This document shows, in pieces, positions 10 through 55,178 of a stretch of DNA of 64,000 bases (positions are counted from its first letter, which is position 1; each line of letters begins with the position of its first letter). The notes under the pieces are model-generated. The model had not been told where the DNA came from, ran no database searches, and saw only the letters and a list, made by a program, of their open reading frames with translations. Origin of the DNA: Escherichia phage vB_EcoM_NBG1. Where the stretch lies: the sequence record MH243438.1; one strand, written 5' to 3'. The position numbers and the translations under genes are program-made.

Positions 10-2223
10 TTATTTGGCCGCTTCCACGGCCTTCATGAATTTAACGATTTGAGCGACCTGTTCTTTGGAAAGAGTACCACGTCGTCCCATGTAGTCTGAC
101 ACAATATGATAATTGGTTTCGAATTCAATAACCATTTTATCATCATTATCGTAAGCATTATCTTTAAGCTTATCGAAAATTTTAGCACACAATTCTAACT
201 TCTTATTCAGGTCTGTATTAGTAGCACCTGCGAATCGATTCCATCCCCAACGATTATTTACTGTTGAGAGTTTTGCAAAGTCTTTACTGATTTCTTTGTT
301 CTTAGAGCTAAAATACTTACTAAGGAAGTTAAGCTCTTCATTACGAGTAATATGATTCAAATAAGGCTGTGCTCTACGACTTGGTGATACATACTCATCA
401 TAATCCACTTTATCGATTAGCGTAATATAGTCATTAATTGATTTTTCGAACAAGCATTCTACTTCGCCAAGTTTACGAACTTTCTTAGCAATCTGTGGAC
501 GAACTACAGTGAACTCTTTAATACCTGACAAATCAGCAATACGGGTCAAGAAATTGGAGTTATAGTTCAACCAACCTTTATCTGAGTCAAGACATTCAGC
601 ATTAGAACGATTACGAACTATAGCATAACCTTGGATTTCATCTGCTTCACTTGCCGGAATAAAGAGGTCTTCTGATACCCAAACGTCATTTTCATTCTTA
701 AAGAATCGATGAGCACTTGGCGATTTAGGACGAGGCTCATTAGTCCGTTTCCTGACTTCAATCCATGGCTTAACGATTTGTAAAAGCTCTGAAGTCTTGT
801 ACATGTTAATGTTGTCGCCATCAAAGATAACTTTAAGGCGTTCCAGAAGTTTCATTGCATCTTCGTCTGTAGGGTCAACGAATAGTACACTTTTACCAAA
901 ACCGCGTGGAACTTTACCAGTTAATTTAACCTCGTCTTTAGACATTTCAATTGAATTAAGAGCTCGCATTAATGGAACGCGTCCCTTAACGTCGTCAATA
1001 ACAATTTCAACATTTTTAATGTTAATGCCAATCAGACTGTTAATTGAAATGGTTGCCGTTGAGCTACCGCTTTCACGAATACGACGAAGACGAGGGGATT
1101 CAACGATATCGTATACGACACCAAGATTACACCACTCAGGCCCCATTTTAAAACGTTTGTACAACTCAGAATAAGTTAGTTGTTCTTTAGAGTATTTCAG
1201 TGATTCAATATTAGACCCGGCCTTTTCCATGTATTTACGAGCGGTATAGCCAAGAGAATCAATTTCACGGAACACATGACGTGGGTATTTACAATCAATC
1301 CATTTCTTAGAATCTTCAGCAAACAATTTAGCATCGATTTCTGCAACGCGTTTATGGATATTTGCTACTGTACGTTTATCAAATGACAATGCTTCACGAG
1401 ACGGGGCTACATCTAGTTCACCCATAGGGAATTTAATATAAGCTGTAGTGCATCGTGTCATCATCCATGTTTGTTCTTTAATAACACTTCCGATTGGATA
1501 TACAATACCACCGTAAACAGCCATGATATTACCGCGTTCACCCCATGGAGCTTCCTTGGCCAAATATACATCGTCAAATTCAGGGAAGTATTTAATATCT
1601 TTAACACCACGAACTTCTGCAATATCACCTAGAGGACGCATAACATATGCAATTTCGGATGCGAACTTTTCAAAATCTTCTGGGTTAACAGGCACAACTA
1701 CTTCAACGCCGGTCCGGTCATCAGGACCCATCTTATCTACAAAGGTCGGCTTAATTTGTGGACCCGTGTCATCTTGGTAGATTACGTAACCACGAACTTC
1801 ACCGTTGTGATAAGACGTAAGGTTAAACGTATCGGTATATGCTAGTGGAGCTTTAGAGCCGAGTCCGAATCCACCAATGAAATCGTTACTCGATGTTTTA
1901 GTTGAAGCAAAATATGAGTTATAGATTCCTGGCTCTTCGTCATTACCTCGAATGGTGAAATCACTCATACCAGGACCAAAGTCTCGAACTACAAAACGTG
2001 GGTCTAAACGACCTGGAGCCTGAACAATAAACTTATCAGTGCAACCATTAAGAATTTGTCCATCGATACAGTTTGTGATTAATTCACGTACGCAAGCCAA
2101 TTCTTTGTTTGTATAAAGGTCATTAGACAAAATCTTATAAACTTTACTATTGCCTTGAATAGTAAATGCTGTGCTTTTACCACCAGAACCAATAATCGTT
2201 TCTTTAGCCGTTTCAATAATCAT
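10..2223 (-). CDS. rIIA: rIIA protein (GHKL-type ATPase N-terminal domain)
   Basis: 737-aa ORF; Bergerat-fold motifs ELITNCIDG, RDFGPGMS, GGFGLG; resembles remembered T4 rIIA N-terminus; first gene of T4 map. Confidence 0.88.
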   Translation of the reverse strand: MIIETAKETIIGSGGKSTAFTIQGNSKVYKILSNDLYTNKELACVRELITNCIDGQILNGCTDKFIVQAPGRLDPRFVVRDFGPGMSDFTIRGNDEEPGIYNSYFASTKTSSNDFIGGFGLGSKAPLAYTDTFNLTSYHNGEVRGYVIYQDDTGPQIKPTFVDKMGPDDRTGVEVVVPVNPEDFEKFASEIAYVMRPLGDIAEVRGVKDIKYFPEFDDVYLAKEAPWGERGNIMAVYGGIVYPIGSVIKEQTWMMTRCTTAYIKFPMGELDVAPSREALSFDKRTVANIHKRVAEIDAKLFAEDSKKWIDCKYPRHVFREIDSLGYTARKYMEKAGSNIESLKYSKEQLTYSELYKRFKMGPEWCNLGVVYDIVESPRLRRIRESGSSTATISINSLIGINIKNVEIVIDDVKGRVPLMRALNSIEMSKDEVKLTGKVPRGFGKSVLFVDPTDEDAMKLLERLKVIFDGDNINMYKTSELLQIVKPWIEVRKRTNEPRPKSPSAHRFFKNENDVWVSEDLFIPASEADEIQGYAIVRNRSNAECLDSDKGWLNYNSNFLTRIADLSGIKEFTVVRPQIAKKVRKLGEVECLFEKSINDYITLIDKVDYDEYVSPSRRAQPYLNHITRNEELNFLSKYFSSKNKEISKDFAKLSTVNNRWGWNRFAGATNTDLNKKLELCAKIFDKLKDNAYDNDDKMVIEFETNYHIVSDYMGRRGTLSKEQVAQIVKFMKAVEAAK

Positions 2224-2235
2224 ATTTTTCTCTCA

Positions 2236-2436
2236 TCACAAGTTACGTTTAAAAATTTCTGCCACTTCGAGAAGTTCTTCTTTAGTAGCTGTATCGGTTT
2301 GTATTTTATATCGAATTTCTTTAAAGCGTTCTTTAAAGGACTCTGCTGACTCGATATCAAAAAATCTTTGGATAAGCCGGAATTCCCGGAGCACTGCTTT
2401 ATCAAAAAGTTCCAAGTCCACGTTATATGTTCTCAT
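2236..2436 (-). CDS. hypothetical small protein (rIIA.1 position)
   Basis: 66-aa ORF directly downstream of rIIA, same strand; no recognisable motif. Confidence 0.5.
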   Translation of the reverse strand: MRTYNVDLELFDKAVLREFRLIQRFFDIESAESFKERFKEIRYKIQTDTATKEELLEVAEIFKRNL

Positions 2437-2528
2437 AATATTCTCTTCAGTAGATTCCTAGGGCACTATTACTAAAGACCATATAATCTATCATCTTATG
2501 TGTAATAGTGCCTCAGGCTATTCAGGAT

Positions 2529-3629
2529 TTACGCTGTGAAGATTTTATCCCACATCGCAACAACTGCATCTCGATTATACTTCTTCCATACTGCTTCAGC
2601 ACGTTTAACTCGAGCTTCGTATGTGTCAGTGAATTCTAATACAGCTTTTGTGTAAAGCGCAACTACTTCTTTCTTAGGAGTAGAGGAATCAATTTCTACA
2701 CGCACAGTATCTGGGTCATATTCGAATGTCGCGTGCGGATAATCCTTAAAAACTAACTGAATCACAGGGACACCTTTAGAGATGGCTTCAATAGAACTAT
2801 TCTCTACCGTACCCGTGTCAGGACACGTATTAATAAGTGCTTTAGCTGTTTTAAGACGTTCCATGATTTCACTGTGTGGAGCATCAATAATAACAGGATA
2901 CTTAGCCGGTGGTGCCCATTTACTAGGACAGTATCCTACACCATTTTCGCCTAGTGCTTTAATCGCTTCAAGAGCAACATCAGTACGACGCATTTTAGTG
3001 TCATAACGTTGTGCACTAATAATCAGATCAGTCGCCGTAAGAACTTCAGGTTTATCATTCAAACAAATAACCGGATAATCTTCGGCTTCAAACAACGGAT
3101 TTGCTCGCCAATAATCATAATCAATTTTGTCAGTCAGACCTGAAGTCATATAACAATATTTGCGTTCAAATTCACGGAAGGCTTTAGTAGGAGCATAACT
3201 CTTACCACCGTTCTTATGAATTTGAATAGTCTGGTCCCAAATTTGAACAATGCCACGAGATACCGGTTCAAATGGTGTTGCCATAAAATTCTTATGAACT
3301 TTAGAGAGACCCGCGTCTTTAATTGCCTGAACGGTTAGTTTAGTCGGTTCCATAGTAACAACAAAATCATATTCATGGATGCCGGCTAGTTCAACAATCT
3401 TACGAGCCATAGTATAACTCATACCTAGACTGAATTTAGTCAGATGACCAACAGGATGATGATTAACCTTCCAATCACCAAATGTGTCATTATCAAAACC
3501 GATATAATCAATATCAGCACCGATGGACACAAGATATTTCAACACATTTAAATGTACTGCTTCAAGACCACCTTGTACACGTTCTGGGTTAAATGGGACT
3601 GCACGAGATGGGATAAACATAACTTTCAT
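2529..3629 (-). CDS. putative glycosyltransferase (candidate DNA hmC sugar transferase)
   Basis: 366-aa ORF; N-terminus MKVMFIPSRA..GGLE loosely resembles T4 alpha-glucosyltransferase start; sits in an insert between rIIA.1 and gene 39 that T4 lacks. Confidence 0.55.
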   Translation of the reverse strand: MKVMFIPSRAVPFNPERVQGGLEAVHLNVLKYLVSIGADIDYIGFDNDTFGDWKVNHHPVGHLTKFSLGMSYTMARKIVELAGIHEYDFVVTMEPTKLTVQAIKDAGLSKVHKNFMATPFEPVSRGIVQIWDQTIQIHKNGGKSYAPTKAFREFERKYCYMTSGLTDKIDYDYWRANPLFEAEDYPVICLNDKPEVLTATDLIISAQRYDTKMRRTDVALEAIKALGENGVGYCPSKWAPPAKYPVIIDAPHSEIMERLKTAKALINTCPDTGTVENSSIEAISKGVPVIQLVFKDYPHATFEYDPDTVRVEIDSSTPKKEVVALYTKAVLEFTDTYEARVKRAEAVWKKYNRDAVVAMWDKIFTA

Positions 3630-3654
3630 AATTAAGCCTTATTAAAATTAAAAT

Positions 3655-3674
3655 TAAGCTCCCGAAGGAGCTTA
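3655..3674 (-). terminator. UUCG-tetraloop stem-loop at end of gene 39 (possible terminator/RNA stability element)
   Basis: minus RNA AAGCUCC-UUCG-GGAGCUU followed by A/U-rich tract; overlaps gene 39 stop. Confidence 0.4.
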
Positions 3675-5489
3675 GGACATCCATTCTTTACGAAGTTCTG
3701 AATCATCACCCATCAACATTTCAAAGAGTTCTTTCCAATTTTCAGGAAGTTTAACTACGTCGTACACAGGGTTCTGAATCATTTCACGATATTCTGACTT
3801 TTCAAGGGAGCCCAATCCCTTGATGTATCGAATACTATGCTTAGGCAGTGTATCTTTAACTTCTTCATACTCAGCTACAGTATAAAACCATTTTTGAGTT
3901 TTGCCAATTTGTGCAATAATTACAGGCGTTTTAACAAAGCGAATACGTCCTTGTTCGAACAATTCAGGCCAATTACTAAAGAAAGCAAGCAAAGCCGGAT
4001 AGATACTTCCAAGACCGTCGTGATCTGCATCAGTCATAATTGCAATATTACGATAGTTCGTATTCTCTGCCTTTTCACCAAGAATAAGACCTGTGATAGC
4101 ACAGATATCAAAGAGCTCTTTGTTCTTCATCATATCAGCATATGACATACCCCAGCTATTCATCACCTTACCACGTAATGGGAATCCGCCGTGTAGTTCA
4201 CGGTCACGAACATCAATGAGATAACCAATTGCCGAATCACCTTCCGTTAAGAACAATGTCGTATCTGCATCTTTACCACATTGGTTAGCTTTAATATGCT
4301 TATGAACCTTAGCTTTAGTTGCCTTTTTAGCTGCTTTAGTTTCTGCAGCCTTTTCTGCCGCCAATTTACGAGCTAATGCTGCTTCAACAATAGGCATAAT
4401 CAAGGCTTCGTTTTTAAGAAGTGCCTGAGCAATTTTCTTAGCATCTAATTGGATATGATTACGAATATCACCATACGTTGACGTTAAACGTTCTTTAGTC
4501 TGAGAATCAAAACGCATGTTGCTCATGTCTCTAATAAACATCAACATTGTGAGGCATTCTTTAACACGAGCTTTAGTGACTTCAATACCCTTATATTTCT
4601 TTTTAATACCCGGTAAAAGATGTTCGCAGATATCATCCATTACACATTCAACATGATGACCACCATTTTTAGTATGGATGTTATTCACATAAGTTAAATG
4701 ACGGAAGCCATCTGGTGATGTTGTGAATGCTATAGAGACTTTATCATTTTCTTGAATGATGTTATCTTCACCAAATTGTTTAGCAAATCGTTTAAAATTA
4801 CCATCAACCTTTTTACCATTAAATGTGAACTTGATATCAGGATAAACGACTGCCAATGTTTGAAGTCGGTCTAAAGTAATATCTAAATAAATTTGAGATA
4901 AATTATGCTCTTCAAATGAAGAGAAATCAGGAGTGAAGATTACTTTAGTGCCTTTACCTTTAGATTTCTTAGAAGACCATGATTTGTTTTCCATTCCGTT
5001 TGAACAGTTAACAGTGATTTCATTTTCGCCATCTGACGTGATGCCTGTAAACAACGTAGAGAAGATATTAGTTAAACTACTCCCGACGCCGTTCATACCA
5101 CCAGTCTTGCGTTCAGAATCATCACCAAAGTTACCACCAGCCTTTGGAATAGTCCAGGCCGCTACAGGACCAGGAATTTGTTCACCTGTTTGGTCGGTAA
5201 CTAAACCTTGAGGAATACCACGTCCGTTATCTTCCACCGAAACTTGATTATTTTTAATTTGCACATCAATTTTATTTGCAAACTTAAATGATGTACGAAT
5301 AGCTTCATCAACCGAGTTGTCAATAATCTCATCGATTAATTTAACCAGACCAGGAACATATTCAACTTGTTGATATTTACCAAACAAAAAACGCTCATGT
5401 GCTTCTTTAGCAGAAGAACCAATATACATACCACTACGTTTCTTAATATGTTCTACATCTGACAATACCTTAATTTCATTTTTAATCAT
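3672..5489 (-). CDS. 39: DNA topoisomerase II large subunit (gene 39 fused with gene 60 region)
   Basis: 605-aa ORF; GHKL ATPase motifs EIIDNSVDEA, EDNGRGIP, GGMNGVGSS plus TOPRIM-like C-terminal part; single uninterrupted ORF. Confidence 0.9.
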   Translation of the reverse strand: MIKNEIKVLSDVEHIKKRSGMYIGSSAKEAHERFLFGKYQQVEYVPGLVKLIDEIIDNSVDEAIRTSFKFANKIDVQIKNNQVSVEDNGRGIPQGLVTDQTGEQIPGPVAAWTIPKAGGNFGDDSERKTGGMNGVGSSLTNIFSTLFTGITSDGENEITVNCSNGMENKSWSSKKSKGKGTKVIFTPDFSSFEEHNLSQIYLDITLDRLQTLAVVYPDIKFTFNGKKVDGNFKRFAKQFGEDNIIQENDKVSIAFTTSPDGFRHLTYVNNIHTKNGGHHVECVMDDICEHLLPGIKKKYKGIEVTKARVKECLTMLMFIRDMSNMRFDSQTKERLTSTYGDIRNHIQLDAKKIAQALLKNEALIMPIVEAALARKLAAEKAAETKAAKKATKAKVHKHIKANQCGKDADTTLFLTEGDSAIGYLIDVRDRELHGGFPLRGKVMNSWGMSYADMMKNKELFDICAITGLILGEKAENTNYRNIAIMTDADHDGLGSIYPALLAFFSNWPELFEQGRIRFVKTPVIIAQIGKTQKWFYTVAEYEEVKDTLPKHSIRYIKGLGSLEKSEYREMIQNPVYDVVKLPENWKELFEMLMGDDSELRKEWMS

Positions 5490-5530
5490 GTTGTCTCCTC
5501 GTTATGAAGGTATTCTATCATCCGAAATCT

Positions 5531-5553
5531 AAAGCAAAAAGGGCCGAAGCCCT
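5531..5553 (-). terminator. intrinsic terminator-like hairpin (UUCG loop) followed by U tract
   Basis: minus RNA AGGGC-UUCG-GCCCU then UUUUUGCUUU. Confidence 0.5.
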
Positions 5554-5999
5554 TATTTAAATTTAATTTTCTGAAGTGCATCAATTGCAGCCAAACGCCC
5601 TTGTTCACTTTTAACTGTAATGACCACATCGCCTGATACGATCACCGAACCATCAACAAATTCTATGGAGCCTTTTTTGAAATCGACAGCTGTATCTGGT
5701 TCCGGAACTTCTTCAAAGAATTTAAATTCTGCACCATAAAGCAGAATATCACCTTGCATACTATGAATAGTTCGGCCGTAATCGCCTACGGCTTCTACAG
5801 CAATAACCGAAACACCGTAACCAATCATCTCTTCCACAATAAAATCTTTGGACAATAAAGTAGTATGCAGATTAGTATTAAGACGTTTACCAGTCGTATT
5901 AAGAATTCTCAAGAAATTATCTTCTTGACCTTTGATAATACGGTATTTCTTACCAACTTCAAAACCTTTAAAACCTTTAAAAGCCGTATTAAAAGCCAT
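5553..5999 (-). CDS. hypothetical protein
   Basis: 148-aa ORF, compact spacing, same strand. Confidence 0.55.
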   Translation of the reverse strand: MAFNTAFKGFKGFEVGKKYRIIKGQEDNFLRILNTTGKRLNTNLHTTLLSKDFIVEEMIGYGVSVIAVEAVGDYGRTIHSMQGDILLYGAEFKFFEEVPEPDTAVDFKKGSIEFVDGSVIVSGDVVITVKSEQGRLAAIDALQKIKFK

Positions 6000-15013: not shown

Positions 15014-15046
15014 AACAAAAAAAAAAGGAATCCCGAAGGATTCCTT
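15014..15046 (-). terminator. intrinsic terminator after soc
   Basis: minus RNA 9-bp stem AAGGAAUCC-UUCG-GGAUUCCUU followed by U9. Confidence 0.7.
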
Positions 15047-20645: not shown

Positions 20646-20667
20646 AAAGGAGACCGAAGTCTCCTTT
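20646..20667. terminator. UUCG stem-loop after gene 41 (orientation ambiguous)
   Basis: 9-bp stem AAAGGAGAC-CGAA-GTCTCCTTT; T tract follows on plus strand, none on minus strand. Confidence 0.4.
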
Positions 20668-22122: not shown

Positions 22123-22464
22123 TTAAAAGAATTTAAATTTTTTCTTGGTCCGTTCATTAAAAGCTTGTTGTACTTGCATTGTAACACATTTTTCAACATG
22201 TGGTGCAAGTTCTGCTTTTCTGTCCTGGTCAAGAACTGCAAAGTCCATTACGATTTTACCATCAACCCAGTCTAGTTTTGTAATATAGACTATATGATGG
22301 GAACCGTCTTCAAGTGTAATCAGAATCTCTTGAATGACATTTTCCATTGCTGAACGGACAATTTTAAGAGATTCATTAAACACTCGTTCTTTGCGAATGT
22401 CTTCCCCTTCCGAAGAAGGGGATTCATCAACGATTTCTAGATTCAAATCATCGAGATTATTCAT
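22123..22464 (-). CDS. 40: gene 40-position protein (head vertex assembly chaperone-like)
   Basis: 113 aa from ATG 22464 (MNNLDDL..), overlapping uvsX stop; synteny with T4 gene 40. Confidence 0.5.
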   Translation of the reverse strand: MNNLDDLNLEIVDESPSSEGEDIRKERVFNESLKIVRSAMENVIQEILITLEDGSHHIVYITKLDWVDGKIVMDFAVLDQDRKAELAPHVEKCVTMQVQQAFNERTKKKFKFF

Positions 22465-23629
22465 CGAAATCTTCCATTTCGTCAAGGTCGTTTTCTATAT
22501 CTGCTGCAGACGGAGCATCAGAAGTTTTAACTGGAACCTTAGTTGTTGCTTTGCAATTAATAAGGTCGTTAACAGCGTCATCAACTTCTTTAATAGAAGA
22601 GATAGCACCTAGTTTATATTTAGTTTCAATTGCATCTCGGAAAGGTTTGTGTTTAAACAAAGGTCCCCAGAATTCTACACAATCAGTAGCTTTAGCACGC
22701 CATGATTTTTCTTCACGAATCATTTCGCCTGTTTCTTCGTCAAGGAATTCGCGAGCATACCAACCGGCTTTAGGCTTAACTACAAAACCAATTTCAGTTG
22801 CCATTTCTAACAAGCCACTGAATGGGTCGATACCACCATCGAAATTAACCGTGATTGGGAAAGTAGATTTTTCTTTAACGGTGCGAGATTTTTCTGCTTT
22901 CAACGTGAAGTCATAACCGGTCAATTCTGTACCTTCTTTAACCTGACGTTTAGAGATAAAAAATACCGTGTTGGCAGAATAAAGAATACCTGTACCACCA
23001 CCCATAATCTCTTTAGGATATAGTCCGCCGATTTCCATTGCTGTATGGTTGATTGCAACACATGGAATATCTTTAATAGTCAGATAAGGAGTCACAATGC
23101 GGAACAGAGATTTAAGTGCCTTAGCACGAGACATATCACCTACAACTTTCTCGTTCAATGCATCTTCGGTTTCTTTCTTAGATGCAGTATTACCGATTGA
23201 ATCGATAAAGATAATAACTTTATCACCTCGTTCAATCGCGTCAAGCTGATTAGTCATATCAACTTTAAGTTGTTCGACGGACTGAATTGGTGTATGAACT
23301 ACACGGTCTAAATCAACACCCATTGAACGAAAATAAGATTCCGAAGCACCGAATTCCGAATCATAGAACAAACAGATTGCATCTTTATATTTCTTCATAT
23401 ATGCTGCGACCATAGTTAGTCCAAACAATGTTTTAAAATGTTTAGAAGGTGCAGCAAAAATAGTCAAGCCTGATTGCAATCCTGCATTCAGAGCACCACC
23501 TAGTGCAATATTCAACATCGGAATACGAGTAGGGACTTCATCGCGATTATTAAACAGCTTAGACTTAGTCAAGTCTGCAGTCATTTTAGAAGTAGAAGCT
23601 TTAATCAGACGAGATTTTAAATCAGACAT
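22457..23629 (-). CDS. uvsX: UvsX recombinase (RecA-like)
   Basis: 390 aa; RecA-fold with P-loop-like APSKHFKT; T4 UvsX size and position. Confidence 0.92.
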   Translation of the reverse strand: MSDLKSRLIKASTSKMTADLTKSKLFNNRDEVPTRIPMLNIALGGALNAGLQSGLTIFAAPSKHFKTLFGLTMVAAYMKKYKDAICLFYDSEFGASESYFRSMGVDLDRVVHTPIQSVEQLKVDMTNQLDAIERGDKVIIFIDSIGNTASKKETEDALNEKVVGDMSRAKALKSLFRIVTPYLTIKDIPCVAINHTAMEIGGLYPKEIMGGGTGILYSANTVFFISKRQVKEGTELTGYDFTLKAEKSRTVKEKSTFPITVNFDGGIDPFSGLLEMATEIGFVVKPKAGWYAREFLDEETGEMIREEKSWRAKATDCVEFWGPLFKHKPFRDAIETKYKLGAISSIKEVDDAVNDLINCKATTKVPVKTSDAPSAADIENDLDEMEDFDE

Positions 23630-23727: not shown

Positions 23728-24276
23728 TTAACGAGCCCATTTGATAATTTCTGTAATCAAATCATTACGTTCGCTTGCGTTAAATCCTATAACTTTGTTA
23801 GCACCATCATGATTAAGTAATTGATACGTTTGGATTTCGTTATGAATTGCAAACTCTTCAAAATGTGAAATGACTGTATTAAAACCGAATGAAGACAAAG
23901 TAATAAGGTCGTCTTCAAAACTTTCAGTCATTTCGTTACGTGTTAAAATAATTGTGAACACATCATGGTTTTGGCAAAGACGAACATAATCCTGTTCATA
24001 AACGTCAAGAACCGAGTCCGCATCTTGTCGAATACGTCCATAAACCCAGTTACTAATATATCCACGGTCTAACAGATAAATCTTAGTAGGGTCTAAATAA
24101 TTCAACATTGTTTCGAAACAGCCAACTTCATTTCGAGACTTAACATCGAAACGTCCATCAACTGTTCGTTTAGGGAAATCAATCTTTACATATCTTTCAC
24201 TAATTTCCATTATGTCATTAATGAAAGTTGTTTTACCAGCGTTATCCGGGCCATCTACTAAAATAATTTTAGCCAT
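23728..24276 (-). CDS. P-loop nucleoside/nucleotide kinase-like protein
   Basis: 182 aa; Walker A VDGPDNAGKTT and DRGY motif typical of dNMP/thymidylate-kinase-like enzymes; sits where T4 has beta-gt. Confidence 0.6.
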   Translation of the reverse strand: MAKIILVDGPDNAGKTTFINDIMEISERYVKIDFPKRTVDGRFDVKSRNEVGCFETMLNYLDPTKIYLLDRGYISNWVYGRIRQDADSVLDVYEQDYVRLCQNHDVFTIILTRNEMTESFEDDLITLSSFGFNTVISHFEEFAIHNEIQTYQLLNHDGANKVIGFNASERNDLITEIIKWAR

Positions 24277-24277
24277 T

Positions 24278-25177
24278 TTATTCCTCGATTACGACATCTT
24301 CGTATTTAGGTATATTATACGGTGAAGAAATTAAAGCATTAAAGTAGATGAACTCACCAAGACCTGGATGAAATACTTCTTCAGGATTTTCGAAATATTG
24401 AATCTTCGGACGTCCTTTAAGAATTTGATAGTACTCAGTTTTAGTTGGTTTAAAAATTCTAATCAGCGCTTCTTCAGGATACTTATTTCTGTCAAAGCTA
24501 TTATTTGGATCGGTTATATAAAGCGGTTGACCTAATTGAATTGCGCATTCAACCACTTGTTCAAAACGATAACATGGGTCACTAATTCGAAATGGATGAA
24601 AAATACCATCTAGATGAATAGGAGCCAAATCACCTACAAGACGCTGCATGATGGAAGGACGTATAACTTTCTGCGTTACGATAATCTTATTACCATCTGC
24701 ACCTGCGTTAACCAGCACTTCTTTTTGACGTTCATTCAACACAGTAGTTTGAAGTGAACGATTAACCGACAACATGTCGGTTTTTAAGAATTCGTCAATA
24801 TAAAAACGTGGTTTATTAGGGTCTGCAGTGATATTGAAATTGAATTCTACATCAAAAGCGCCGTCATATCCGGTGATATCTGTGATTAGAAAATCACAAT
24901 CATAATAAGCAATTAATGAATCAACCACAAATTCATTTTCAGACCAGAAATATTTACGAGTGTTATACGCGTTATCTTTATACCATAATGGAACAAACTT
25001 AAATTCCGGGAAAAGACGTTCGCATTCTTTAATATCAGATGCATTACGTGGATATGTAATCACATCACCTGGATTAGCACGGTGCAAATGAAGTTGGAAG
25101 TTGCCATCCTTAAGGATAGCATACTGTCCAGTTTCATAAGACCGCATACTCAAAATAGGTACGCGGAAAATAGCCAT
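24278..25177 (-). CDS. hypothetical protein (beta-gt syntenic position)
   Basis: 299-aa ORF between the P-loop kinase and gene 42; no confident motif. Confidence 0.6.
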   Translation of the reverse strand: MAIFRVPILSMRSYETGQYAILKDGNFQLHLHRANPGDVITYPRNASDIKECERLFPEFKFVPLWYKDNAYNTRKYFWSENEFVVDSLIAYYDCDFLITDITGYDGAFDVEFNFNITADPNKPRFYIDEFLKTDMLSVNRSLQTTVLNERQKEVLVNAGADGNKIIVTQKVIRPSIMQRLVGDLAPIHLDGIFHPFRISDPCYRFEQVVECAIQLGQPLYITDPNNSFDRNKYPEEALIRIFKPTKTEYYQILKGRPKIQYFENPEEVFHPGLGEFIYFNALISSPYNIPKYEDVVIEE

Positions 25178-25893
25178 TAGTCAAGGAATCCTTTAACATA
25201 ATCAAAATCACGTTCAAACACATGGGCACTTACCATGGTATGAGTATAATCACCAACTTCTACACCACATTCGTTAGCGATATAATGAAGTAATTTTCCT
25301 TGGAGATAAAAATCCAACTGCATAACAACAGCACAGTTCTGAGAACGCATATGACAGTGGGTATAAAGCTTACCATCACGAATATAATAAGTCACTGAGT
25401 CAGTACATGGATATTCAAGCGTTTCGTCTGAATCAAGCAAAGCCTGATCAGAACTTTCTAGAATTTGGAACACAACTCTTCGGGAGTTAGGCTTCTCTTT
25501 AAGTTCTTTTAGAAGAGCTGGTAATTGGGCCGCAATGCGAGGACCATAGAAAGTGTTGAAGTTCGCCGGCAAAACATCTGATTTTGGTTTAGAAATAAAT
25601 TTAGCGACATTAGGATATGCCTTAAACGCTTCTTCTGCGTTGGTACCACCAGAAATCATAAACTTCCAGAAATCTTCAGCATATTCATAAGAGATGCGGT
25701 TAATACGTGGGTCGGTCATTTTGAATGTTGACGGAGTGTCAACAACTACTGTCATAGACCCAATTTCATTACAACGTCCAATACGAGAATCAGTTACGAA
25801 TTCCGGGTTTTCTAAAATTTCACGATTGACTGCTTTAAATGCGGCTTGAAAATCTGCGGCTTTGATATATTTCATTGTGTTATGTTTTCCCAT
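25177..25893 (-). CDS. 42: dCMP hydroxymethylase
   Basis: 238 aa; thymidylate-synthase-like, active-site region EYPCTDS; T4 gp42 position. Confidence 0.85.
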   Translation of the reverse strand: MGKHNTMKYIKAADFQAAFKAVNREILENPEFVTDSRIGRCNEIGSMTVVVDTPSTFKMTDPRINRISYEYAEDFWKFMISGGTNAEEAFKAYPNVAKFISKPKSDVLPANFNTFYGPRIAAQLPALLKELKEKPNSRRVVFQILESSDQALLDSDETLEYPCTDSVTYYIRDGKLYTHCHMRSQNCAVVMQLDFYLQGKLLHYIANECGVEVGDYTHTMVSAHVFERDFDYVKGFLD

Positions 25894-25934: not shown

Positions 25935-26174
25935 TTATTTGAATTTCTTAGTGATGTTGATATAACGTAGAGCTTCGGCATCGATACTTCCAAGAACACT
26001 ATGAAGAAATGCATCAGCGTAGTATTCCAATTGAACAGGTTCTTTAATCACTTTAGCCGCTTTGGTTTCAAACAGGCCCATAAGGGCCTTTTTAAGAATT
26101 TGTTCATTAGTGTTCAGTTTCATAGTCAAAATCTCTTCATTAAGTTGGTGGTTAAAAGTTTTTCTAGAAATCAT
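25935..26174 (-). CDS. hypothetical protein
   Basis: 79-aa ORF, start overlaps stop of the 386-aa gene. Confidence 0.5.
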   Translation of the reverse strand: MISRKTFNHQLNEEILTMKLNTNEQILKKALMGLFETKAAKVIKEPVQLEYYADAFLHSVLGSIDAEALRYINITKKFK

Positions 26175-27331
26175 TCCGGGTACCTCAAAGCGTCATCAGA
26201 GTTAGTTATATCAATAATAGATATAGAGTTTTCTGCTAACCCATTTTTAGATAACTGACGTTTATAATATCTTTCACAATATGTACACGTCGTCCCGCAG
26301 ATTTCATTAGCACAATCGAAATCTGGATGTCTGAACCACCTTTTTTCTAAAAAGCCATCTAACAAAGAGGTTTCAATATTTACTGTATGTGAAAACTCGG
26401 TCTCATTTTCAAGAGTGAAAATGGTCTCTAAAGGCTTCCACAATTCCAACAAATTACCTTCAAACTTTTCAGAAGCATAAGCTTCAAGAACTTTCAAAAT
26501 GTAGTCGGTGCTACCTGTACGTCCTGAAACTTTGAATTGAGTGATACCAATATCATTATAAAGTTTCAAATCTTGAGGACGAACAAAACGAGTTCTCAAC
26601 CAGTTAAATGGGTCTGTATCACGAGCTTTAATGCAGTGTTGCATTGGATATCCATTTAAGGATTTGGCATCATCTACTGTAACATCGGTGCTATGGAAAA
26701 TATAGCAAGAGTCACGATAGCTACAATGTGTTGTATACCCTTTACCAGCATTAGAACAGAACTCATTTACAAGAACTTCAAATATTATATTGTTCTTATT
26801 GCAAAACTCTGCTGCACGCTTCAGGAAAGAAACCGAACGGTTCTTATGAATTCCGCAACAGACTTTTTTGATGTTATATTGGTCATGCAAGTATTTGATT
26901 TGAGTTACAGCATCAACATGTAGAATTGTTGAAACTTCAATCTCAATGTCTTTATTGACTTCACGAACAATTTCCATAACAACAGGATTAGCGATAGTAA
27001 TACGCCATACGCCTATTGACCAAAGATACTGAACATAATCCTGAATAGCTTTCTTCTTCCACTCAACTAGTTCTCTTTTTGAACCAGGATTTATCGTGTT
27101 GAGTGTATAGTTAAAGCAAATACCTAATTCGTTACAACGTTTAACATAATCTTCTAACATCTTTTTGTCAACGTCAGGAAGCCTAAAATCAGGTCTGGCT
27201 GCTACAAAAGCCATTTCTCTTGTAGAGCCATATACTTCGTTTATCAAGCTATTAGGATAAGTTTTATTGAGCTCTACGATTTTATCAAGAAGAGCTAAAT
27301 CAAAATTCGTTCCGATTTTAAAAGTATTCAT
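26171..27331 (-). CDS. Cys-rich hypothetical enzyme (candidate Fe-S/metal-binding protein)
   Basis: 386 aa; Cys clusters CCGIH, FCSNAGKGYTTHCSYRDSC and C-terminal CANEICGTTCTYC (CX3CX-aromatic-C pattern); inside the sugar module. Confidence 0.65.
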   Translation of the reverse strand: MNTFKIGTNFDLALLDKIVELNKTYPNSLINEVYGSTREMAFVAARPDFRLPDVDKKMLEDYVKRCNELGICFNYTLNTINPGSKRELVEWKKKAIQDYVQYLWSIGVWRITIANPVVMEIVREVNKDIEIEVSTILHVDAVTQIKYLHDQYNIKKVCCGIHKNRSVSFLKRAAEFCNKNNIIFEVLVNEFCSNAGKGYTTHCSYRDSCYIFHSTDVTVDDAKSLNGYPMQHCIKARDTDPFNWLRTRFVRPQDLKLYNDIGITQFKVSGRTGSTDYILKVLEAYASEKFEGNLLELWKPLETIFTLENETEFSHTVNIETSLLDGFLEKRWFRHPDFDCANEICGTTCTYCERYYKRQLSKNGLAENSISIIDITNSDDALRYPE

Positions 27332-27387: not shown

Positions 27388-27789
27388 TTATAGATTCGGT
27401 TTATATGATTTAAATGTTTCGAATTCGCCTTTATTCATAAGAGCTTTGAATTCGTCAGGACGCATAGCTTTGTCGTCGATAATCCAATCATATACTGGTT
27501 TATGTGTTAGCAAATTATGGTACTTCAAGCCAATGTTTGCCAAGTTCTGAATCAGACTCGGGAGAATGTCAATTGCTATACGACCAGGACCTACTGACTT
27601 CATACCACGAGCAGTGTAAAGCGTTATGGTATGCCCTGCATCATACAGGGCATTAATGGCAGACACCATTTCGACGTCTGGTTTGAAGTTCACGTAATCA
27701 CGATTGTTATTCCACTCTGTTATACAATCATCGACATCAAAACAAAGATTAAGCATGTTTTCTACACGGTGCATTAGATTCGTTCCCAT
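27388..27789 (-). CDS. HAD-superfamily phosphatase (KdsC-like small sugar-phosphate phosphatase)
   Basis: 133 aa; HAD motif I FDVDDCIT, motif II TITLYTAR, motif III/IV K..IIDDKA. Confidence 0.7.
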   Translation of the reverse strand: MGTNLMHRVENMLNLCFDVDDCITEWNNNRDYVNFKPDVEMVSAINALYDAGHTITLYTARGMKSVGPGRIAIDILPSLIQNLANIGLKYHNLLTHKPVYDWIIDDKAMRPDEFKALMNKGEFETFKSYKPNL

Positions 27790-29459
27790 TGATGAGTGAT
27801 ATCGCCACCGATTGGACGATAGGAAACACCAGTTTCTTTATCAGTTAGTACCCATTTACCAGGATTTTTTGTAATCAGAGTAGCCGTTACAGGTTCTGCT
27901 ACGTCATAACTAATAGAGCCGTCTTGAAGTACACGGCCCATGTTACGTAATTGCTTAGTCAGAAGTTCCATACCTTTATAATATGCGGCTACCGCTTTAA
28001 GTGGATTATTCTTGAAATAACCACCTAATGCAATCCAGATAATTGCTACAGCCAAATGATGATATTCATTAAACGAACTCAGCTTTCCATATTTGTAAAC
28101 TAATGGATTGATGTTAATAGTCACATTACAAGTTGTTTCATCAATAGTAAACTGTCCCCAGGTCGGATTAGCGTTGAATTCATCATAACCTGAAACAGCG
28201 TAAAGCACTTTAGCTTCATCATACAATTTTGGCCCGTAAATCTTGGTTTCACCAAAATATCCACGAGGGTCGATAAACTTGACTTCGCCATTATCAGTAA
28301 TCATAGTATTACTGAAGTTCGGGTCGCCATGAATAACAGAGTACTGTCCCTGAGAACGGTTATGATAACGAATAAGGTGTTCTAAAGCTTGTTTCAGCAT
28401 TGGCTTCAGACGTCCAATCTTAGTGTAGTTCACATGTGTGATTTTACCAAATGAATCAATCAACGGTTGAATGCTTTCACAACGATCAATAACTTTCGTA
28501 TAGAATTCTTTAGTGAAATCACGACGAACAGTTTCAGGACTTACAAAATAAGTGTCTGTGCTGAATTTCAGTGCATCTAAAATTGCATCAACAATTTGTG
28601 GACGAGCAAGACTTGATTTGGATTTAATATATTCAAATGCTGGCTTACCTTTAATGCGTTCCATTTCAAAGTTATTTTCATTAACAGAAACTAACTGAGG
28701 AACTGAATCTGATTTCACTTTCAAATACCACGAAATCTCATCTTTCTGAAGAGCTCGTCCCTGTTCGGTTAATGCGAATTTAGTTACAGTTTCTTCACCA
28801 ATTTCAACTGCATTAAAACTACGATTAAGTTCACGAACTTCATGAGCCTTTTCAAGTTTAGGCATATCACCTAAATCAATTAGATTCATAAGCTCTGATT
28901 TATTGAATGCGCCACTGTAAAGGAATTCTACGAAATCACGTCCTTTGCAGTATTCATGAATTTCCTCATCAGTAGAACCCATGTAGAATTCCCAGTCTTT
29001 GAACTGGTAAATTCCCACAACATTACCGCCTGTTGCACCTACATTAGTGATATTTTCACCGTCGAAATTATATCGACATTCGTCACCCTTAACATAGATT
29101 GCGTTAACATTCCAAGACCATGAACCAAAATCGGGAATAATATCACACCAGTTAACAATTACGTTATGGCCGTCTAAATCTTTGTGTAATTTAGCAAGAG
29201 CATAAGCAGAACCATACGCTTCATCAACTGTACGAATAGTCACATTGAACCCTTCTTGCTCGCAATAAGCTCGAACAGTTTCAGCAAATTTTGAATGAAC
29301 TACTACAATAATTTCATCTGCGCCAAGGCCAGAATAAATTGTATACAAATTGCTCAGAATAGTGTCTTGTTTATAGTTAACAAGCACCTTAGGAATATGA
29401 TGCGTTATTGGATACAAACGAGTCGCCAGTCCAGCACCAAGAATAACAGCTTTTTTCAT
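27774..29459 (-). CDS. bifunctional sugar-1-phosphate nucleotidyltransferase / sugar kinase
   Basis: 561 aa; N-terminal ILGAGLATRLYPIT..PK nucleotidyltransferase signature; C-terminal APH/choline-kinase-like VIHGDPNFSNT..FIDPRGYFG. Confidence 0.8.
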   Translation of the reverse strand: MKKAVILGAGLATRLYPITHHIPKVLVNYKQDTILSNLYTIYSGLGADEIIVVVHSKFAETVRAYCEQEGFNVTIRTVDEAYGSAYALAKLHKDLDGHNVIVNWCDIIPDFGSWSWNVNAIYVKGDECRYNFDGENITNVGATGGNVVGIYQFKDWEFYMGSTDEEIHEYCKGRDFVEFLYSGAFNKSELMNLIDLGDMPKLEKAHEVRELNRSFNAVEIGEETVTKFALTEQGRALQKDEISWYLKVKSDSVPQLVSVNENNFEMERIKGKPAFEYIKSKSSLARPQIVDAILDALKFSTDTYFVSPETVRRDFTKEFYTKVIDRCESIQPLIDSFGKITHVNYTKIGRLKPMLKQALEHLIRYHNRSQGQYSVIHGDPNFSNTMITDNGEVKFIDPRGYFGETKIYGPKLYDEAKVLYAVSGYDEFNANPTWGQFTIDETTCNVTININPLVYKYGKLSSFNEYHHLAVAIIWIALGGYFKNNPLKAVAAYYKGMELLTKQLRNMGRVLQDGSISYDVAEPVTATLITKNPGKWVLTDKETGVSYRPIGGDITHQWERI

Positions 29460-29500: not shown

Positions 29501-29644
29501 CTAGTTAAAGCATTCATACTTTGCTTGTAGTCCAATCATAATCCATCCAATTACAAGTGTTGGAATCATTACTGGAGCCGTTAAGCTCCAGTAGATAGTC
29601 ATGACAAGCATCAATAGTAAAAGTCCTATTGTTATTGCTTTCAT
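29501..29644 (-). CDS. small membrane protein (47 aa)
   Basis: manually translated MKAITIGLLLLMLVMTIYWSLTAPVMIPTLVIGWIMIGLQAKYECFN; ATGA overlap with the isomerase stop. Confidence 0.35.
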   Translation of the reverse strand: MKAITIGLLLLMLVMTIYWSLTAPVMIPTLVIGWIMIGLQAKYECFN

Positions 29645-30276
29645 TGTTCGCCTCGTAACATGGCACCTAGTGCACCGCCTGGATGGAACTTAAGGAAATC
29701 ATTAGAGGTAAATCCACGTTCAGACGAAAGGTTGATAGCGAACGTATCGATAAGCGCTAACAACAATGTAGTAGACATTGTCGGAGCTAAAGAGTTCTCG
29801 TCAACTTCTACCGCGATACCGGTACAGAACGTATAATCAAAAAGAGCTTCGTATTCTTGTGGAATGTCAGGGTTACAATGTAACAGAATCTGTTTAACCT
29901 GAGGACGAATCATACGAAGATGTTTAGCAACACCTATCATTTCTTCAGTCTTACCAGAACGACTGATGTGAACTAATACATCATTAGGTGCAATAAATCC
30001 TGCGTCACCATGAGAATAATGCCCAGTGTTCAAGTACATACTTGGGATACCGAGTGAAGCAAAAGTCTCGGAAGCTTTAGTTGCGATATTAGCGTTCTTA
30101 CCAACACCTGTAATAATTACTCGGCTTTCATAATTACTAAGTCCCGGGCGTCGAAGAGTTTCTAGAATAGCATTATAACGAGCAGGGTTTTGACTAATTA
30201 CTTTAGCCATAGTGGCAAGAGATGAAGCTTGTTTTACGATTGCGTCAATAGCGATAGTGATTGGTGTAGTTTTCAT
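29641..30276 (-). CDS. D-arabinose-5-phosphate isomerase (SIS domain only, KdsD/GutQ-like)
   Basis: 211 aa; ITGVGKNANIATKASETFASLGIPS, ISRSGKTEE and FHPGGALG align with remembered E. coli KdsD SIS domain; no CBS domains. Confidence 0.85.
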   Translation of the reverse strand: MKTTPITIAIDAIVKQASSLATMAKVISQNPARYNAILETLRRPGLSNYESRVIITGVGKNANIATKASETFASLGIPSMYLNTGHYSHGDAGFIAPNDVLVHISRSGKTEEMIGVAKHLRMIRPQVKQILLHCNPDIPQEYEALFDYTFCTGIAVEVDENSLAPTMSTTLLLALIDTFAINLSSERGFTSNDFLKFHPGGALGAMLRGEQ

Positions 30277-30316: not shown

Positions 30317-33028
30317 TCAAAAATCAAACATATCGAACAGAGATGCTTTCTTCTCGTAATCGAGTTTAGCTGCTGATGTGAATCCTTCAAGTGGTTTAAT
30401 AAATGTCTTCTCAAGGAGAACAGTGTAGTCCATCCAATGAAGTACGTCGTCTTTAATTAAATCTGTGATTTCAGTACCAGAAGGCCATGCGATACATTTA
30501 TCACCGAATGGGTTTCCTTCACGTAAAGGCAGAACATATACTTTTTCACCTTCTACAACTTGTGGTGCATCAATATTACCTTTGATAGCTCGGTTATACG
30601 TCAGAATTCCACGAATATGGAACGGGCATTTAGGACCCGGGAATCCACCTACGTCGTATTTAGCAATGTTATTCGCAGAAGATACCGACGCGATGCTAAT
30701 ATAATTCAATTGACGGAATTCTTTTTCAAACTCTTTAAAATATTCTTGTAATGATTCTTCACCTTCTTGAAGCATACGACGAATACATTCTTTAAGAGCT
30801 TTCTGTACTGCTTTAGGAGTCGAAGATTTCTGAGTCTCTAGACCCATGATTTTGAGTTTAGGCTCAGCGTAACGAGTGCCTTCCATATCCCACACGTTTA
30901 ATGCATAACGTTTCTTACCAGTCCAGAATCCACCAATACCTTTAGAACCGAGCGGAGGACCAGCGATAGCTTCTCGGTCCATGAACATTAAGTGTTGTTT
31001 ATTGTTCATGTATTCACACATTTCACGGAAACCTTTATCAATAGCTGGTTCCATACGTTCACGTGCAAACTTATCTAAGAAGTCTACCCAATGGTTGGTA
31101 TCACGGAATTTAGATTCACCAACCTTATCAATAATTTTATCAGCAGATACGTAAATAGAGTCTGTATCACCATATAGAACGAAAGCTTCGCCTTCTGTAC
31201 CACAAACTTCATTCAGATATTCATTAACTTTACGTTCAATCCACTGTAAAGCCATTTGTCCGAATGTTGTGATTGCAGTAGCATTACGCAAATCGTAATA
31301 ACGGAACCATACGTTACCAAGTGCACCATAAAGCGAGTTGATAAGCAATTTACGGTTAATTTGTGCAGTCATACCTGCAACTTCAGTACGTTGAGCTCTG
31401 AACAACATTTCATTAAGAGATTTAGCAGACAACTTTTTAATCTTTTCTTTAATCTCATCACTGAAGTCGAAACGATAATCAACATCTAATGGTTCGTCAA
31501 CAGAAAGATTAGGATTATGCAATGCCTCTTTAATTATTTCACAATTACGTTGAGCTGCAAGCATGTAACCTTTATGTTCTTTACGTTGGTTAAAGACCTT
31601 AGTGATTTCAGTTGGAACTACACCATCACGGTCTTTATAATACATCATGCCGTTAGGAGAGCAACTGTACACATCTGAAGGACGTTCAGCGATTGCGTTA
31701 ATATAATCATGCAGTGGAGCTACTTTAAACGTTCCTGCTATTGTTTCCGGGCTAATATTCACTTGGCGAATAATACTTGGATACAGAGATGTAAGGTCGA
31801 AACTCATTACATATTTGTATCGATTTGGAATAGGTTCCTTAACAAAAGCGCCAGGATAAGGTTGAACCGGGTGAGAACGACCTTGTGGAATCACCTTGTT
31901 CTGCTCTTTAAGGCTATTAAAAATAATAGCATCCCATGTTTTAATTGGGCTAAACACAGATTGAATCTGTATCTTAGCATAATAACCCATGTCCAAACTC
32001 AAGTTGATGAACTGACGCTTAGCATCAATTTGCAATACACGATACACGTCGATAATGTTATAAGAAATATATCGTTGGTGATTGCTTTCACGAAGCTTAG
32101 AAATAGGGCCGTCATATTTCAGTTTACCAACGTTCAATTCAAATTCTGAAATGTAATCCAGAGAATACGACGGTTGATTGGTAAAAGAGAATTTTTTGTA
32201 AAGGTCAATGTAATCAAGAACAGAGATACCGAACAATGTAATGATTTCACGAGAACCATACATGTTTTCGATAACTTTAACACGAGTTTTACGATGTGGC
32301 GATAAACGTTTCGCAGTAGATTCGCCAAAAATATTCTTGATTCGGTTATACACATATGGAATATCAAATGACTCAACGTTCCATCCAGTCAAAATGACAG
32401 GAGTTTTCTGTTGCCAGAAGTTGAGATATTCCATCAATAATTCTTTTTCATTATCAAACGGCATATAAACAATTTTGTCGATAATTTCGGATGGAACTTC
32501 ATCACCACCTTGTTCTTGAAGCTTAGCAGCGATTTCAATAGACCATTCTTCTACATTACCGTATGGAGAATTCAATAGATCAAATACGTAGAACCTGTCA
32601 TCAATTGAGTCATAATGGGTGATAGCATCAATCGGATGTTTTGCTTGTGACGGCTCAGGGAACCCGTCCGGAGATGTTACTTCGATGTCGAAGTTAGCCA
32701 CACGAATTTTTGTATGGTCATATTTGATTTCATAGTTATAAGTGTCAGACAAATACGCCAATTTGAAATCGTCCATGCCAAGTGCTTCAAGTCCGATATC
32801 TTCCATGCGTTTAATCCATTGGGAAGCATCACGCATATTAGCGAACAGCTTACGAGTACACGGCTTACCGTAGATATCGAAATATTTCGTAGCCTGACTT
32901 TCTGGACAATGAGCAAACAGTGATGGTTTATATTCTACTTCACGAGTACGTTCACGGCCATTAGAATCGATGTAACGTTCAAAAATTGAATCACCAATCT
33001 GTTCAACCGTTAAGTAAAATTCTTTCAT
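30317..33028 (-). CDS. 43: DNA polymerase (family B)
   Basis: 903 aa; exonuclease motif FDIE and polymerase motif YGDTDS; T4 gp43 size. Confidence 0.95.
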   Translation of the reverse strand: MKEFYLTVEQIGDSIFERYIDSNGRERTREVEYKPSLFAHCPESQATKYFDIYGKPCTRKLFANMRDASQWIKRMEDIGLEALGMDDFKLAYLSDTYNYEIKYDHTKIRVANFDIEVTSPDGFPEPSQAKHPIDAITHYDSIDDRFYVFDLLNSPYGNVEEWSIEIAAKLQEQGGDEVPSEIIDKIVYMPFDNEKELLMEYLNFWQQKTPVILTGWNVESFDIPYVYNRIKNIFGESTAKRLSPHRKTRVKVIENMYGSREIITLFGISVLDYIDLYKKFSFTNQPSYSLDYISEFELNVGKLKYDGPISKLRESNHQRYISYNIIDVYRVLQIDAKRQFINLSLDMGYYAKIQIQSVFSPIKTWDAIIFNSLKEQNKVIPQGRSHPVQPYPGAFVKEPIPNRYKYVMSFDLTSLYPSIIRQVNISPETIAGTFKVAPLHDYINAIAERPSDVYSCSPNGMMYYKDRDGVVPTEITKVFNQRKEHKGYMLAAQRNCEIIKEALHNPNLSVDEPLDVDYRFDFSDEIKEKIKKLSAKSLNEMLFRAQRTEVAGMTAQINRKLLINSLYGALGNVWFRYYDLRNATAITTFGQMALQWIERKVNEYLNEVCGTEGEAFVLYGDTDSIYVSADKIIDKVGESKFRDTNHWVDFLDKFARERMEPAIDKGFREMCEYMNNKQHLMFMDREAIAGPPLGSKGIGGFWTGKKRYALNVWDMEGTRYAEPKLKIMGLETQKSSTPKAVQKALKECIRRMLQEGEESLQEYFKEFEKEFRQLNYISIASVSSANNIAKYDVGGFPGPKCPFHIRGILTYNRAIKGNIDAPQVVEGEKVYVLPLREGNPFGDKCIAWPSGTEITDLIKDDVLHWMDYTVLLEKTFIKPLEGFTSAAKLDYEKKASLFDMFDF

Positions 33029-33085: not shown

Positions 33086-33107
33086 AAATGGGACCGAAGT
33101 CCCATTG
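33086..33107 (-). other. intercistronic UUCG stem-loop between regA and gene 43
   Basis: 9-bp stem with CGAA/UUCG loop, no U tract; adjacent to a TTATACTCCAA promoter-cassette remnant. Confidence 0.4.
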
Positions 33108-39710: not shown

Positions 39711-39740
39711 AAAGCAAAAAAGGAACTCCGAAGAGTTCCT
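39711..39740 (-). terminator. intrinsic terminator upstream of gene 47
   Basis: minus RNA AGGAACUC-UUCG-GAGUUCCU followed by UUUUUUGCUUU. Confidence 0.6.
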
Positions 39741-55163: not shown

Positions 55164-55178
55164 GGGACCCGAAGGTCC
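55164..55178 (-). terminator. UUCG-tetraloop hairpin after the late 88-aa gene
   Basis: minus RNA GGACC-UUCG-GGUCC followed by UUUAGGGGGUU. Confidence 0.4.

Follow-up and report, generated by a model that had tools for sequence, protein, structure and literature searches.

The DNA of phage RB69 holds arabinose, and ORF003c, the only transferase recognisable in that genome, was nominated as the arabinosyltransferase, with hmC assumed as its acceptor (Thomas et al. 2018). In that study HHpred matched ORF003c to the T4 a-gt structure 1XV5 (E 1.9e-24), and Gly-20, Arg-207 and Glu-281 of ORF003c were aligned to the phosphate and ribose contacts of the T4 alpha-GT. The RB69 cytosines have been identified by MS/MS and NMR as beta-D-Araf-(1->3)-alpha-D-Araf-5-hydroxy-dC, accompanied by a mono-arabinosyl form (Lee, Peters, NAR 2026; PMC13326640); RB69-type DNA contains 5-hydroxycytosine to which arabinose is ether-linked at C5, with no hydroxymethyl bridge. 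The 5-hydroxy-dCMP precursor is made by a thymidylate-synthase homologue, RB69 gp46:47 was proposed as arabinosyltransferase 1, gp51, gp52:53 and gp55 were assigned to UDP-Araf synthesis, and RB69 gp3, the product of ORF003c, was listed as 'beta-arabinosyltransferase 2' (PMC13326640). Of the DLP3 transferases examined in vitro in the same work, the single proteins were inactive and none acted on 5hoC DNA; the gp76+gp77 pair alone worked, placing a third Araf on RB69 DNA with UDP-Araf as the donor (PMC13326640). Double arabinosylation is also known from Bas46 and Bas47, deletion of the arabinosyltransferase 'Aat' from Bas46 results in sensitivity to a defence system, and the mono:di arabinose ratio in phage NP is about 1:4.

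We analysed a 64,000-nucleotide stretch of the genome of Escherichia phage vB_EcoM_NBG1 (MH243438.1; hereafter the window), a T-even-type Mosigvirus, in which an ORF between rIIA.1 and gene 39 had been singled out from the sequence in an earlier note. The coordinates, the length and the position between these two genes were correct, as was the remark that T4 lacks the insert: there, gene 60 comes 54 nt after rIIA.1. The minus-strand map reads rIIA, rIIA.1, a 92-nt spacer, the 366-codon ORF, a 42-nt spacer and the fused 39+60 gene (Table 1). The region from 2200 to 3700 is 98-99% identical to that of more than 150 RB69-like coliphages and Shigella phages. Promoter scans found no promoter-like site above chance between gene 39 and the transferase ORF, and transcription of the gene is probably by read-through from the promoter region of gene 39, where a middle-promoter-like site was detected.

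Table 1 Features of the transferase locus and of the arabinosylation gene cluster in the NBG1 window.
Feature	Position	Strand	Remarks
rIIA	10-2223	minus	
rIIA.1	2236-2436	minus	
Stem-loop	2457..2517	minus	imperfect 16-bp stem with a loop of 29 nt; within the 92-nt spacer from the transferase stop codon to the rIIA.1 start
ORF003c-type GT-B glycosyltransferase gene	2529..3629	minus	366 aa, ATG start; proposed DNA beta-arabinofuranosyltransferase 2
Shine-Dalgarno-like TAAGG	3637..3641	minus	7 nt 5' of the transferase ATG; direct sequence reading
C(UUCG)G hairpin	3655..3674	minus	8-bp stem; opens with the gene 39 TAA stop codon, then AUUUUAAUUUU (U-rich tail)
39+60, fused topoisomerase subunit	3672-5489	minus	605 aa
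T4 middle-promoter-like site (TTTTGCTTTA ... TAGAAT)	5512..5539	minus	5' of gene 39; pattern scan
Thymidylate-kinase-like ORF	23728-24276		
First arabinosyltransferase candidate, RB69 gp46:47 orthologue	24278..25177	minus	299 aa; 99.3% tblastn match to RB69 ORF046c/047c
Thymidylate-synthase homologue, putative 5-hydroxy-dCMP synthase	25177..25893	minus	Pfam Thymidylat_synt; function per PMC13326640
U32-peptidase-like protein	26171-27331		
HAD-like phosphatase, RB69 gp51 / AfhF-like	27388..27789	minus	position and size match RB69 gp51 and DLP1_079
Bifunctional sugar-1-P nucleotidyltransferase and kinase, RB69 gp52:53 / AfhE-like	27774..29459	minus	561 aa
SIS-domain arabinose-5-phosphate isomerase, RB69 gp55	29641..30276	minus	Pfam SIS

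The encoded protein is identical to RB69 ORF003c (gp3, NP_861693) at 361 of 366 positions (98.6%) and occupies the same locus. A sequence search of the PDB returned a single match, 9iqz/9ir0, at 98% identity (7 substitutions); these entries, the apo form and the complex with UDP, respectively, are titled 'phage HY126 glycosyltransferase' in Foldseek. All 7 differences from the NBG1 protein are common to the HY126 GenBank protein, from which the crystallised sequence departs at 2 adjacent residues and is otherwise the same. Judging from the PDB codes, we take the source of these structures to be He et al., Nat Chem Biol 2026. The RB69 and HY126 orthologues share with the NBG1 gene the arrangement rIIA.1, glycosyltransferase, 39+60 and the same protein length, differing merely by the 5-7 substitutions mentioned, none of which falls at a family-invariant residue.

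Curated resources say little about this protein. A Pfam scan returned no family at E<=1, the family being too divergent for curated models, and in PHROGs the protein belongs to phrog_8302 (E 5e-222), whose function is given as unknown. GenBank labels of relatives are mostly 'hypothetical protein', 'putative DNA alpha-glucosyltransferase' or 'putative hmC-arabinosyltransferase'. The earlier note's assignment of a GT-B-like glycosyltransferase was nevertheless borne out by structure prediction: an AlphaFold2 model built from a 13-sequence alignment (pLDDT 88.6, pTM 0.85) has the two-Rossmann GT-B fold and superposes on the UDP complex 9ir0 with a TM score of 0.96 and an rmsd of 1.7 A. The next Foldseek neighbours, all with probability 1.0, TM scores of 0.6-0.68 and 11-15% identity, are GT-B enzymes of the GT4 type, namely tetrahydrobiopterin glucosyltransferase, BshA, PimA, MshA and WaaG. 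A profile search of 1.84 billion cluster representatives recovered 23 proteins alone at E<=1e-3, which indicates a very small family. Eight of the ten remote matches (E 4e-11 to 1e-3) carry Pfam Glyco_transf_4 together with Glycos_transf_1, and this weak tail of homologues thus provides a sequence bridge to GT4. Residues G20, G21, R208, E276 and E281 and the motif EAISKGVPV are invariant in the family. With respect to the E-x7-E motif of GT4 enzymes, the second glutamate is the invariant E281 (EA(I)SxGxPV), and the invariant glutamate upstream, E276, gives an E-x4-E spacing. The NBG1 protein is the Mosigvirus orthologue of RB69 ORF003c, a GT-B enzyme of GT4-like architecture that is predicted to be soluble and to bind UDP.

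The same genome contains the remaining functions expected for DNA arabinosylation, namely the 5hodCMP synthase, the UDP-Araf genes and the first transferase, in a cluster at 23.7-30.3 kb between uvsX (22457-23629) and the DNA polymerase gene (30317-33028). The thymidylate-synthase homologue matches the crystallised HY126 enzyme (PDB 9iqc/9ir2) over its full length with an E-value of 2e-160. The isomerase matches the arabinose-5-phosphate isomerases 3etn, 5uqi and 2xhz (E 1e-24 to 2e-18). [quoted passage not shown] The NDP-sugar module that the earlier note had placed at 27-30 kb is real, with genes found from 27.4 to 30.3 kb, and it is very probable that the transferase uses their product, UDP-arabinofuranose, as its putative donor. 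The hmC acceptor suggested in the same note did not hold: the base is 5-hydroxycytosine, and the thymidylate-synthase homologue is essentially identical to the HY126 enzyme. BLASTP detected no similarity between the ORF003c-type transferase and the first transferase, and the two are thus not recent paralogues.

The two transferases also differ in their distribution among phages. A tblastn search with the ORF003c-type protein matched 211 phage records, comprising about 155 of Mosigvirus type (coliphages and Shigella phages) with one copy each, 55 Acinetobacter T4-like phages with matches at two places each, and 1 that bears the label Tegunavirus; none belonged to a Serratia, Shewanella or Klebsiella phage or to a Dhakavirus. 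The first transferase matched 348 records, including Serratia phage LC53, Shewanella phage Thanatos, JS98 and phages of Klebsiella, Proteus and Yersinia. When set beside the known chemistry, the ORF003c-type family is absent from LC53 and Thanatos, which carry one arabinose and contain the first transferase. A single copy is found in phages of the RB69, Bas47 and HY126 type, and the DNA of RB69, Bas46, Bas47 and NP contains mono- plus di-arabinose. Two copies are found in the Acinetobacter phages, of which DLP3 carries tri-arabinose. In each characterised phage, the ORF003c family thus has one copy fewer than there are arabinoses, the chemically characterised phages being few.

Because of its orthology, its pathway context, the match between copy number and sugar number and the activity of DLP3 gp76+gp77, we consider it likely that the ORF003c-type transferase is the DNA arabinofuranosyltransferase for the second sugar, with UDP-Araf as the predicted donor. 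We infer that its acceptor is the first arabinose rather than the base, and also the linkage that it forms. The other transferase (24278-25177) most likely attaches the sugar next to the base, since it is present in all arabinosylating phages and the ORF003c family occurs only with a second or third arabinose. In the proposed pathway, dC would be replaced by 5-hydroxy-dC, the thymidylate-synthase homologue making 5-hydroxy-dCMP, while ribulose-5-P would be converted to UDP-D-arabinofuranose by the isomerase, the kinase/uridylyltransferase and the phosphatase. The first transferase would then put an alpha-Araf on the 5-oxygen, and the ORF003c-type enzyme would attach a further Araf, taken from UDP-Araf, at O3 of this sugar, giving beta-D-Araf-(1->3)-alpha-D-Araf-5-O-cytosine in the DNA. 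The bulkier disaccharide would confer extra protection against DNA-targeting host defences. Points against the second-sugar reading are the inactivity of the single DLP3 transferases, the addition of a third sugar and not a second by the gp76+gp77 pair, the retaining chemistry of the closest structural relatives (GT4) in view of a beta second and an alpha first linkage, and the small number of chemically characterised phages behind the copy-number match.

An enzyme acting directly on the base was the original proposal for RB69, with arabinose placed straight onto the modified cytosine (Thomas et al. 2018, on hmC). It was also assumed in the earlier note, and it agrees with ORF003c having been singled out as the sole recognisable RB69 transferase, with the Bas47 annotation 'putative hmC-arabinosyltransferase' and with the choice of the HY126 orthologue for crystallography. 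We regard such a base-proximal role as unlikely for the NBG1 enzyme, however, as the base is not hmC, all arabinosylating lineages have the GT-B candidate of 24278-25177 in synteny with the 5hodCMP synthase, even where the DNA bears just one arabinose and the ORF003c family is missing entirely, and the DLP3 members were inactive on 5hoC DNA but elongated arabinosylated DNA. An acceptor other than DNA (for example a lipid, a protein or a glycan of the host envelope) would be in keeping with PimA, WaaG and BshA, and the close structural neighbours outside the phage family all use lipids, LPS or small molecules. Against this, the ORF003c family is restricted to phages with arabinosylated DNA, it sits within the DNA-modification cluster in the Acinetobacter phages, and the DLP3 paralogues act on DNA in vitro, which together make a non-DNA acceptor most improbable.

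The gene was also described in the earlier note as a mobile cassette bracketed by an 11-bp inverted repeat (2462-2512) and a UUCG hairpin. Both structures exist, the repeat with a perfect 11-nt core (2462-2472 / 2502-2512) that extends to 16 nt at 88% (2457-2472 / 2502-2517) and the hairpin with the stem and loop given in Table 1, but they do not bracket the gene as the ends of an element, because both repeat arms lie on one side of the ORF and form a stem-loop instead of terminal repeats. The possibility of a recently acquired cassette that moves between phages as a unit with these boundaries has some points in its favour: the junction between rIIA.1 and gene 39 varies by genus (gene 60 abuts in T4, JS98 has 588 nt and Mosigvirus the transferase), the homologues of Acinetobacter phages lie in the modification cluster, so that the gene changed place at least once, and in JK45 a stretch of 503 bp at the 3' end is duplicated exactly and in tandem. 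We nonetheless judge it very unlikely, given that the GC content of 0.38-0.41 equals that of the flanks, that no integrase, transposase or homing endonuclease is present, that the repeat-arm sequence is found nowhere else, that the UUCG hairpin shares bases with the stop codon of gene 39 and is one of 8 of its kind in the window, and that the gene is a fixed component of about 155 Mosigvirus records, where its identity of 90-99% matches that of the first transferase. The transferase gene has moved or been gained at some time in its history, and nothing marks it as a mobile cassette. The 588-nt rIIA.1-39 region of JS98 holds two small ORFs without annotation, and neither its DNA nor its encoded proteins retain any trace of the transferase; this comparison shows a variable locus and does not indicate the direction, gain or loss.

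Both stem-loops are structures of the transcript. Folded as RNA, the 2457-2517 stem-loop has a free energy of -28.6 kcal/mol (z = -4.4 against shuffled controls). It is kept in RB69, HY126, Bas47 and JK45, with no informative covariation: the relatives are about 99% identical and differ by a G-U-compatible change in HY126 and an A-C mismatch in RB69. The 3655..3674 hairpin, whose C(UUCG)G loop is of the extra-stable kind, resembles a terminator or a hairpin of intercistronic RNA, and in the relative OL960576 it is annotated as a rho-independent terminator. C(UUCG)G hairpins with a stem of at least 5 bp number 8 within the 64-kb window where 0.67 would be expected, and all of them are on the transcribed minus strand. 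Another of these 8 lies just 5' of gene 39, beside the middle-promoter-like site.

Members of the same family are the DLP3 proteins gp77 and gp76 (Acinetobacter; Lazarusvirus arabinosyltransferases 2/3), to which the NBG1 transferase is 43% and 40% identical over its full length. The DLP3 genome has the same pathway genes as NBG1, and the pair uses UDP-Araf and acts on arabinosylated DNA (PMC13326640). The DLP3 genes differ in being tandem paralogues (58% mutually identical) inside the modification cluster, both needed together to add a third arabinose, whereas the single NBG1 copy lies about 21 kb away from its cluster. The T4 alpha- and beta-glucosyltransferases share with the NBG1 enzyme the GT-B fold, a UDP-sugar donor and a DNA acceptor, the last two being proposed for NBG1, but they are only about 10% identical to it, act directly on hmC and did not come up in the 50 best Foldseek matches of the NBG1 model. 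The hmC enzymes of the T-even phages need the product of a gp42-type dCMP hydroxymethylase, while the synthase family present in NBG1 makes 5-hydroxy-dCMP instead. A second-sugar (gentiobiosyl) DNA transferase is known from T2 and T6, the beta-glucosyl-HMC-alpha-glucosyltransferase. It is a functional analogue, as it elongates a sugar on a modified cytosine in phage DNA, but it takes glucose from UDP-Glc and works on an hmC base; a sequence relationship was not detectable, and tblastn with the NBG1 transferase gave no Tequatrovirus-type matches.

Outside the phage family, the best structural neighbours are the bacterial GT4 enzymes BshA (3mbo), PimA (2gej), MshA (3c4q) and WaaG (2iv7), from which the NBG1 protein differs by its low identity and by failing every Pfam model. 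These GT4 enzymes are retaining and have lipids, LPS or small molecules as acceptors. With retaining GT4 relatives, a second linkage that is beta and a first that is alpha, the assignment of retention or inversion hangs on the anomeric configuration of the donor. Somewhat speculatively, a GT4-like scaffold might make the beta-(1->3) Araf-Araf bond on DNA and an unrelated transferase the alpha bond to the base, either with UDP-beta-D-Araf as donor, in which case the ORF003c-type enzyme would retain and the first would invert, or with a GT4-type fold that has turned inverting; as part of the same tentative proposal, the single Mosigvirus copy, so far from the cluster and behind a leaky gene 39 hairpin, could set the mono:di ratio. 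We hold this combination to be possible but rather doubtful.

The finding is real but not new, since the literature already covers the gene, named a putative DNA arabinosyltransferase several times (Thomas 2018; Lee/Peters NAR 2026; AEM 2026), its likely role and, for an orthologue with 98% identity, a crystal structure; it raises no biological question beyond those pursued in the 2025-2026 literature. Its practical value is a corrected annotation, as a putative UDP-Araf-dependent DNA arabinofuranosyltransferase for the second step of the 5-hydroxycytosine pathway. Assigning genes to sugars in this way helps to forecast the fate of therapeutic phages against host defences and supplies enzymes for making glycosylated DNA. 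For RB69-like and related phages, arabinosylated 5-hydroxycytosine is a shield against restriction enzymes and several CRISPR types, and at the same time makes them vulnerable to type IV enzymes, GmrSD/BrxU among them.

The window holds eight hairpins closed by a C(UUCG)G tetraloop, as against 0.67 expected from shuffled sequence; their stems measure 5-9 bp, and all eight lie on the transcribed (minus) strand with none on the opposite strand. They constitute one class of RNA hairpins or terminators that recurs genome-wide between cistrons. Upstream of gene 39, one of these hairpins is followed directly by a promoter-like site, in which a MotA box and a -10 element resemble a T4 middle promoter, and the pair is a compact junction of terminator and promoter.

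Features of the transferase locus, the arabinosylation cluster and the UUCG hairpins (window coordinates unless stated)
Feature	Coordinates	Strand	Remark
Stem-loop	2457-2517	-	-28.6 kcal/mol, z -4.4
C(UUCG)G hairpin	3655-3674	-	
C(UUCG)G hairpin	5539-5554	-	
Junction of the 5539-5554 hairpin with MotA box and -10 element	5512-5554	-	hairpin 5554-5539; promoter-like site 5539-5512
C(UUCG)G hairpin	15025-15046	-	
C(UUCG)G hairpin	20646-20667	-	
C(UUCG)G hairpin	22403-22422	-	
U32-peptidase-family protein gene (RB69 gp50)	26171-27331	-	386 aa; within arabinosylation cluster
C(UUCG)G hairpin	33087-33106	-	
C(UUCG)G hairpin	39721-39740	-	
C(UUCG)G hairpin	55165-55178	-	
Tandem duplication, Shigella phage JK45	locus 2207-3212; record about 2412-3417		

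A strong stem-loop takes up the greater part of the 92-nt spacer that precedes rIIA.1, where it could act in termination, in processing or in translational control of rIIA.1. The structure is kept in Mosigvirus relatives and has no counterpart at the same position in JS98 or T4. The rIIA.1-gene 39 interval of JS98 (NC_010105.1, 2437-3024) comprises 588 nt without annotation; its minus strand holds two small plausible ORFs of about 53 aa (MRKYWVTL...) and about 100 aa (MIMQDNSIV...), separated by a terminator-like hairpin with a GCAA loop.

Shigella phage JK45 (NC_054940.1), classed under Tequatrovirus despite its Mosigvirus-type transferase locus, carries an exact tandem duplication of 503 bp (100% identity). 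The duplicated unit runs from the final ~400 nt of the transferase gene across the 92-nt spacer into the initial codons of rIIA.1, and it creates a chimeric ORF of 136 aa in which five rIIA.1 codons precede the transferase's C-terminal 131 aa. The duplication could be either a genuine recent event or an assembly artefact. A discrepancy was also found in HY126, whose GenBank protein (PP658200.1) reads LG at transferase residues 288-289, within the invariant KGVPV motif, where the crystallised enzyme (PDB 9iqz), the window protein and all family members have PV; the mismatch is likely due either to an error in the sequencing behind the record or to correction of the construct.

Within the arabinosylation cluster, the U32-peptidase-family gene is flanked by the 5hodCMP synthase and UDP-Araf genes. 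For RB69 gp50, a table published in NAR in 2026 offers just a guess, "sugar or heterocycle reductase" (PMC13326640), and the corresponding interval of the clusters of Acinetobacter phages DLP1 and DLP3 contains no annotated equivalent.

Beyond Mosigvirus and the Acinetobacter phages, transferase family members were found at 36-41% identity, namely P0007 from Tegunavirus sp. BRC001, a 167-kb genome carrying the Tegunavirus label, and P0011 and P0012, metagenomic variants of 381 aa each, whose contigs reach at most 26.7 kb. These three proteins may be signs of additional poly-arabinosylating lineages.
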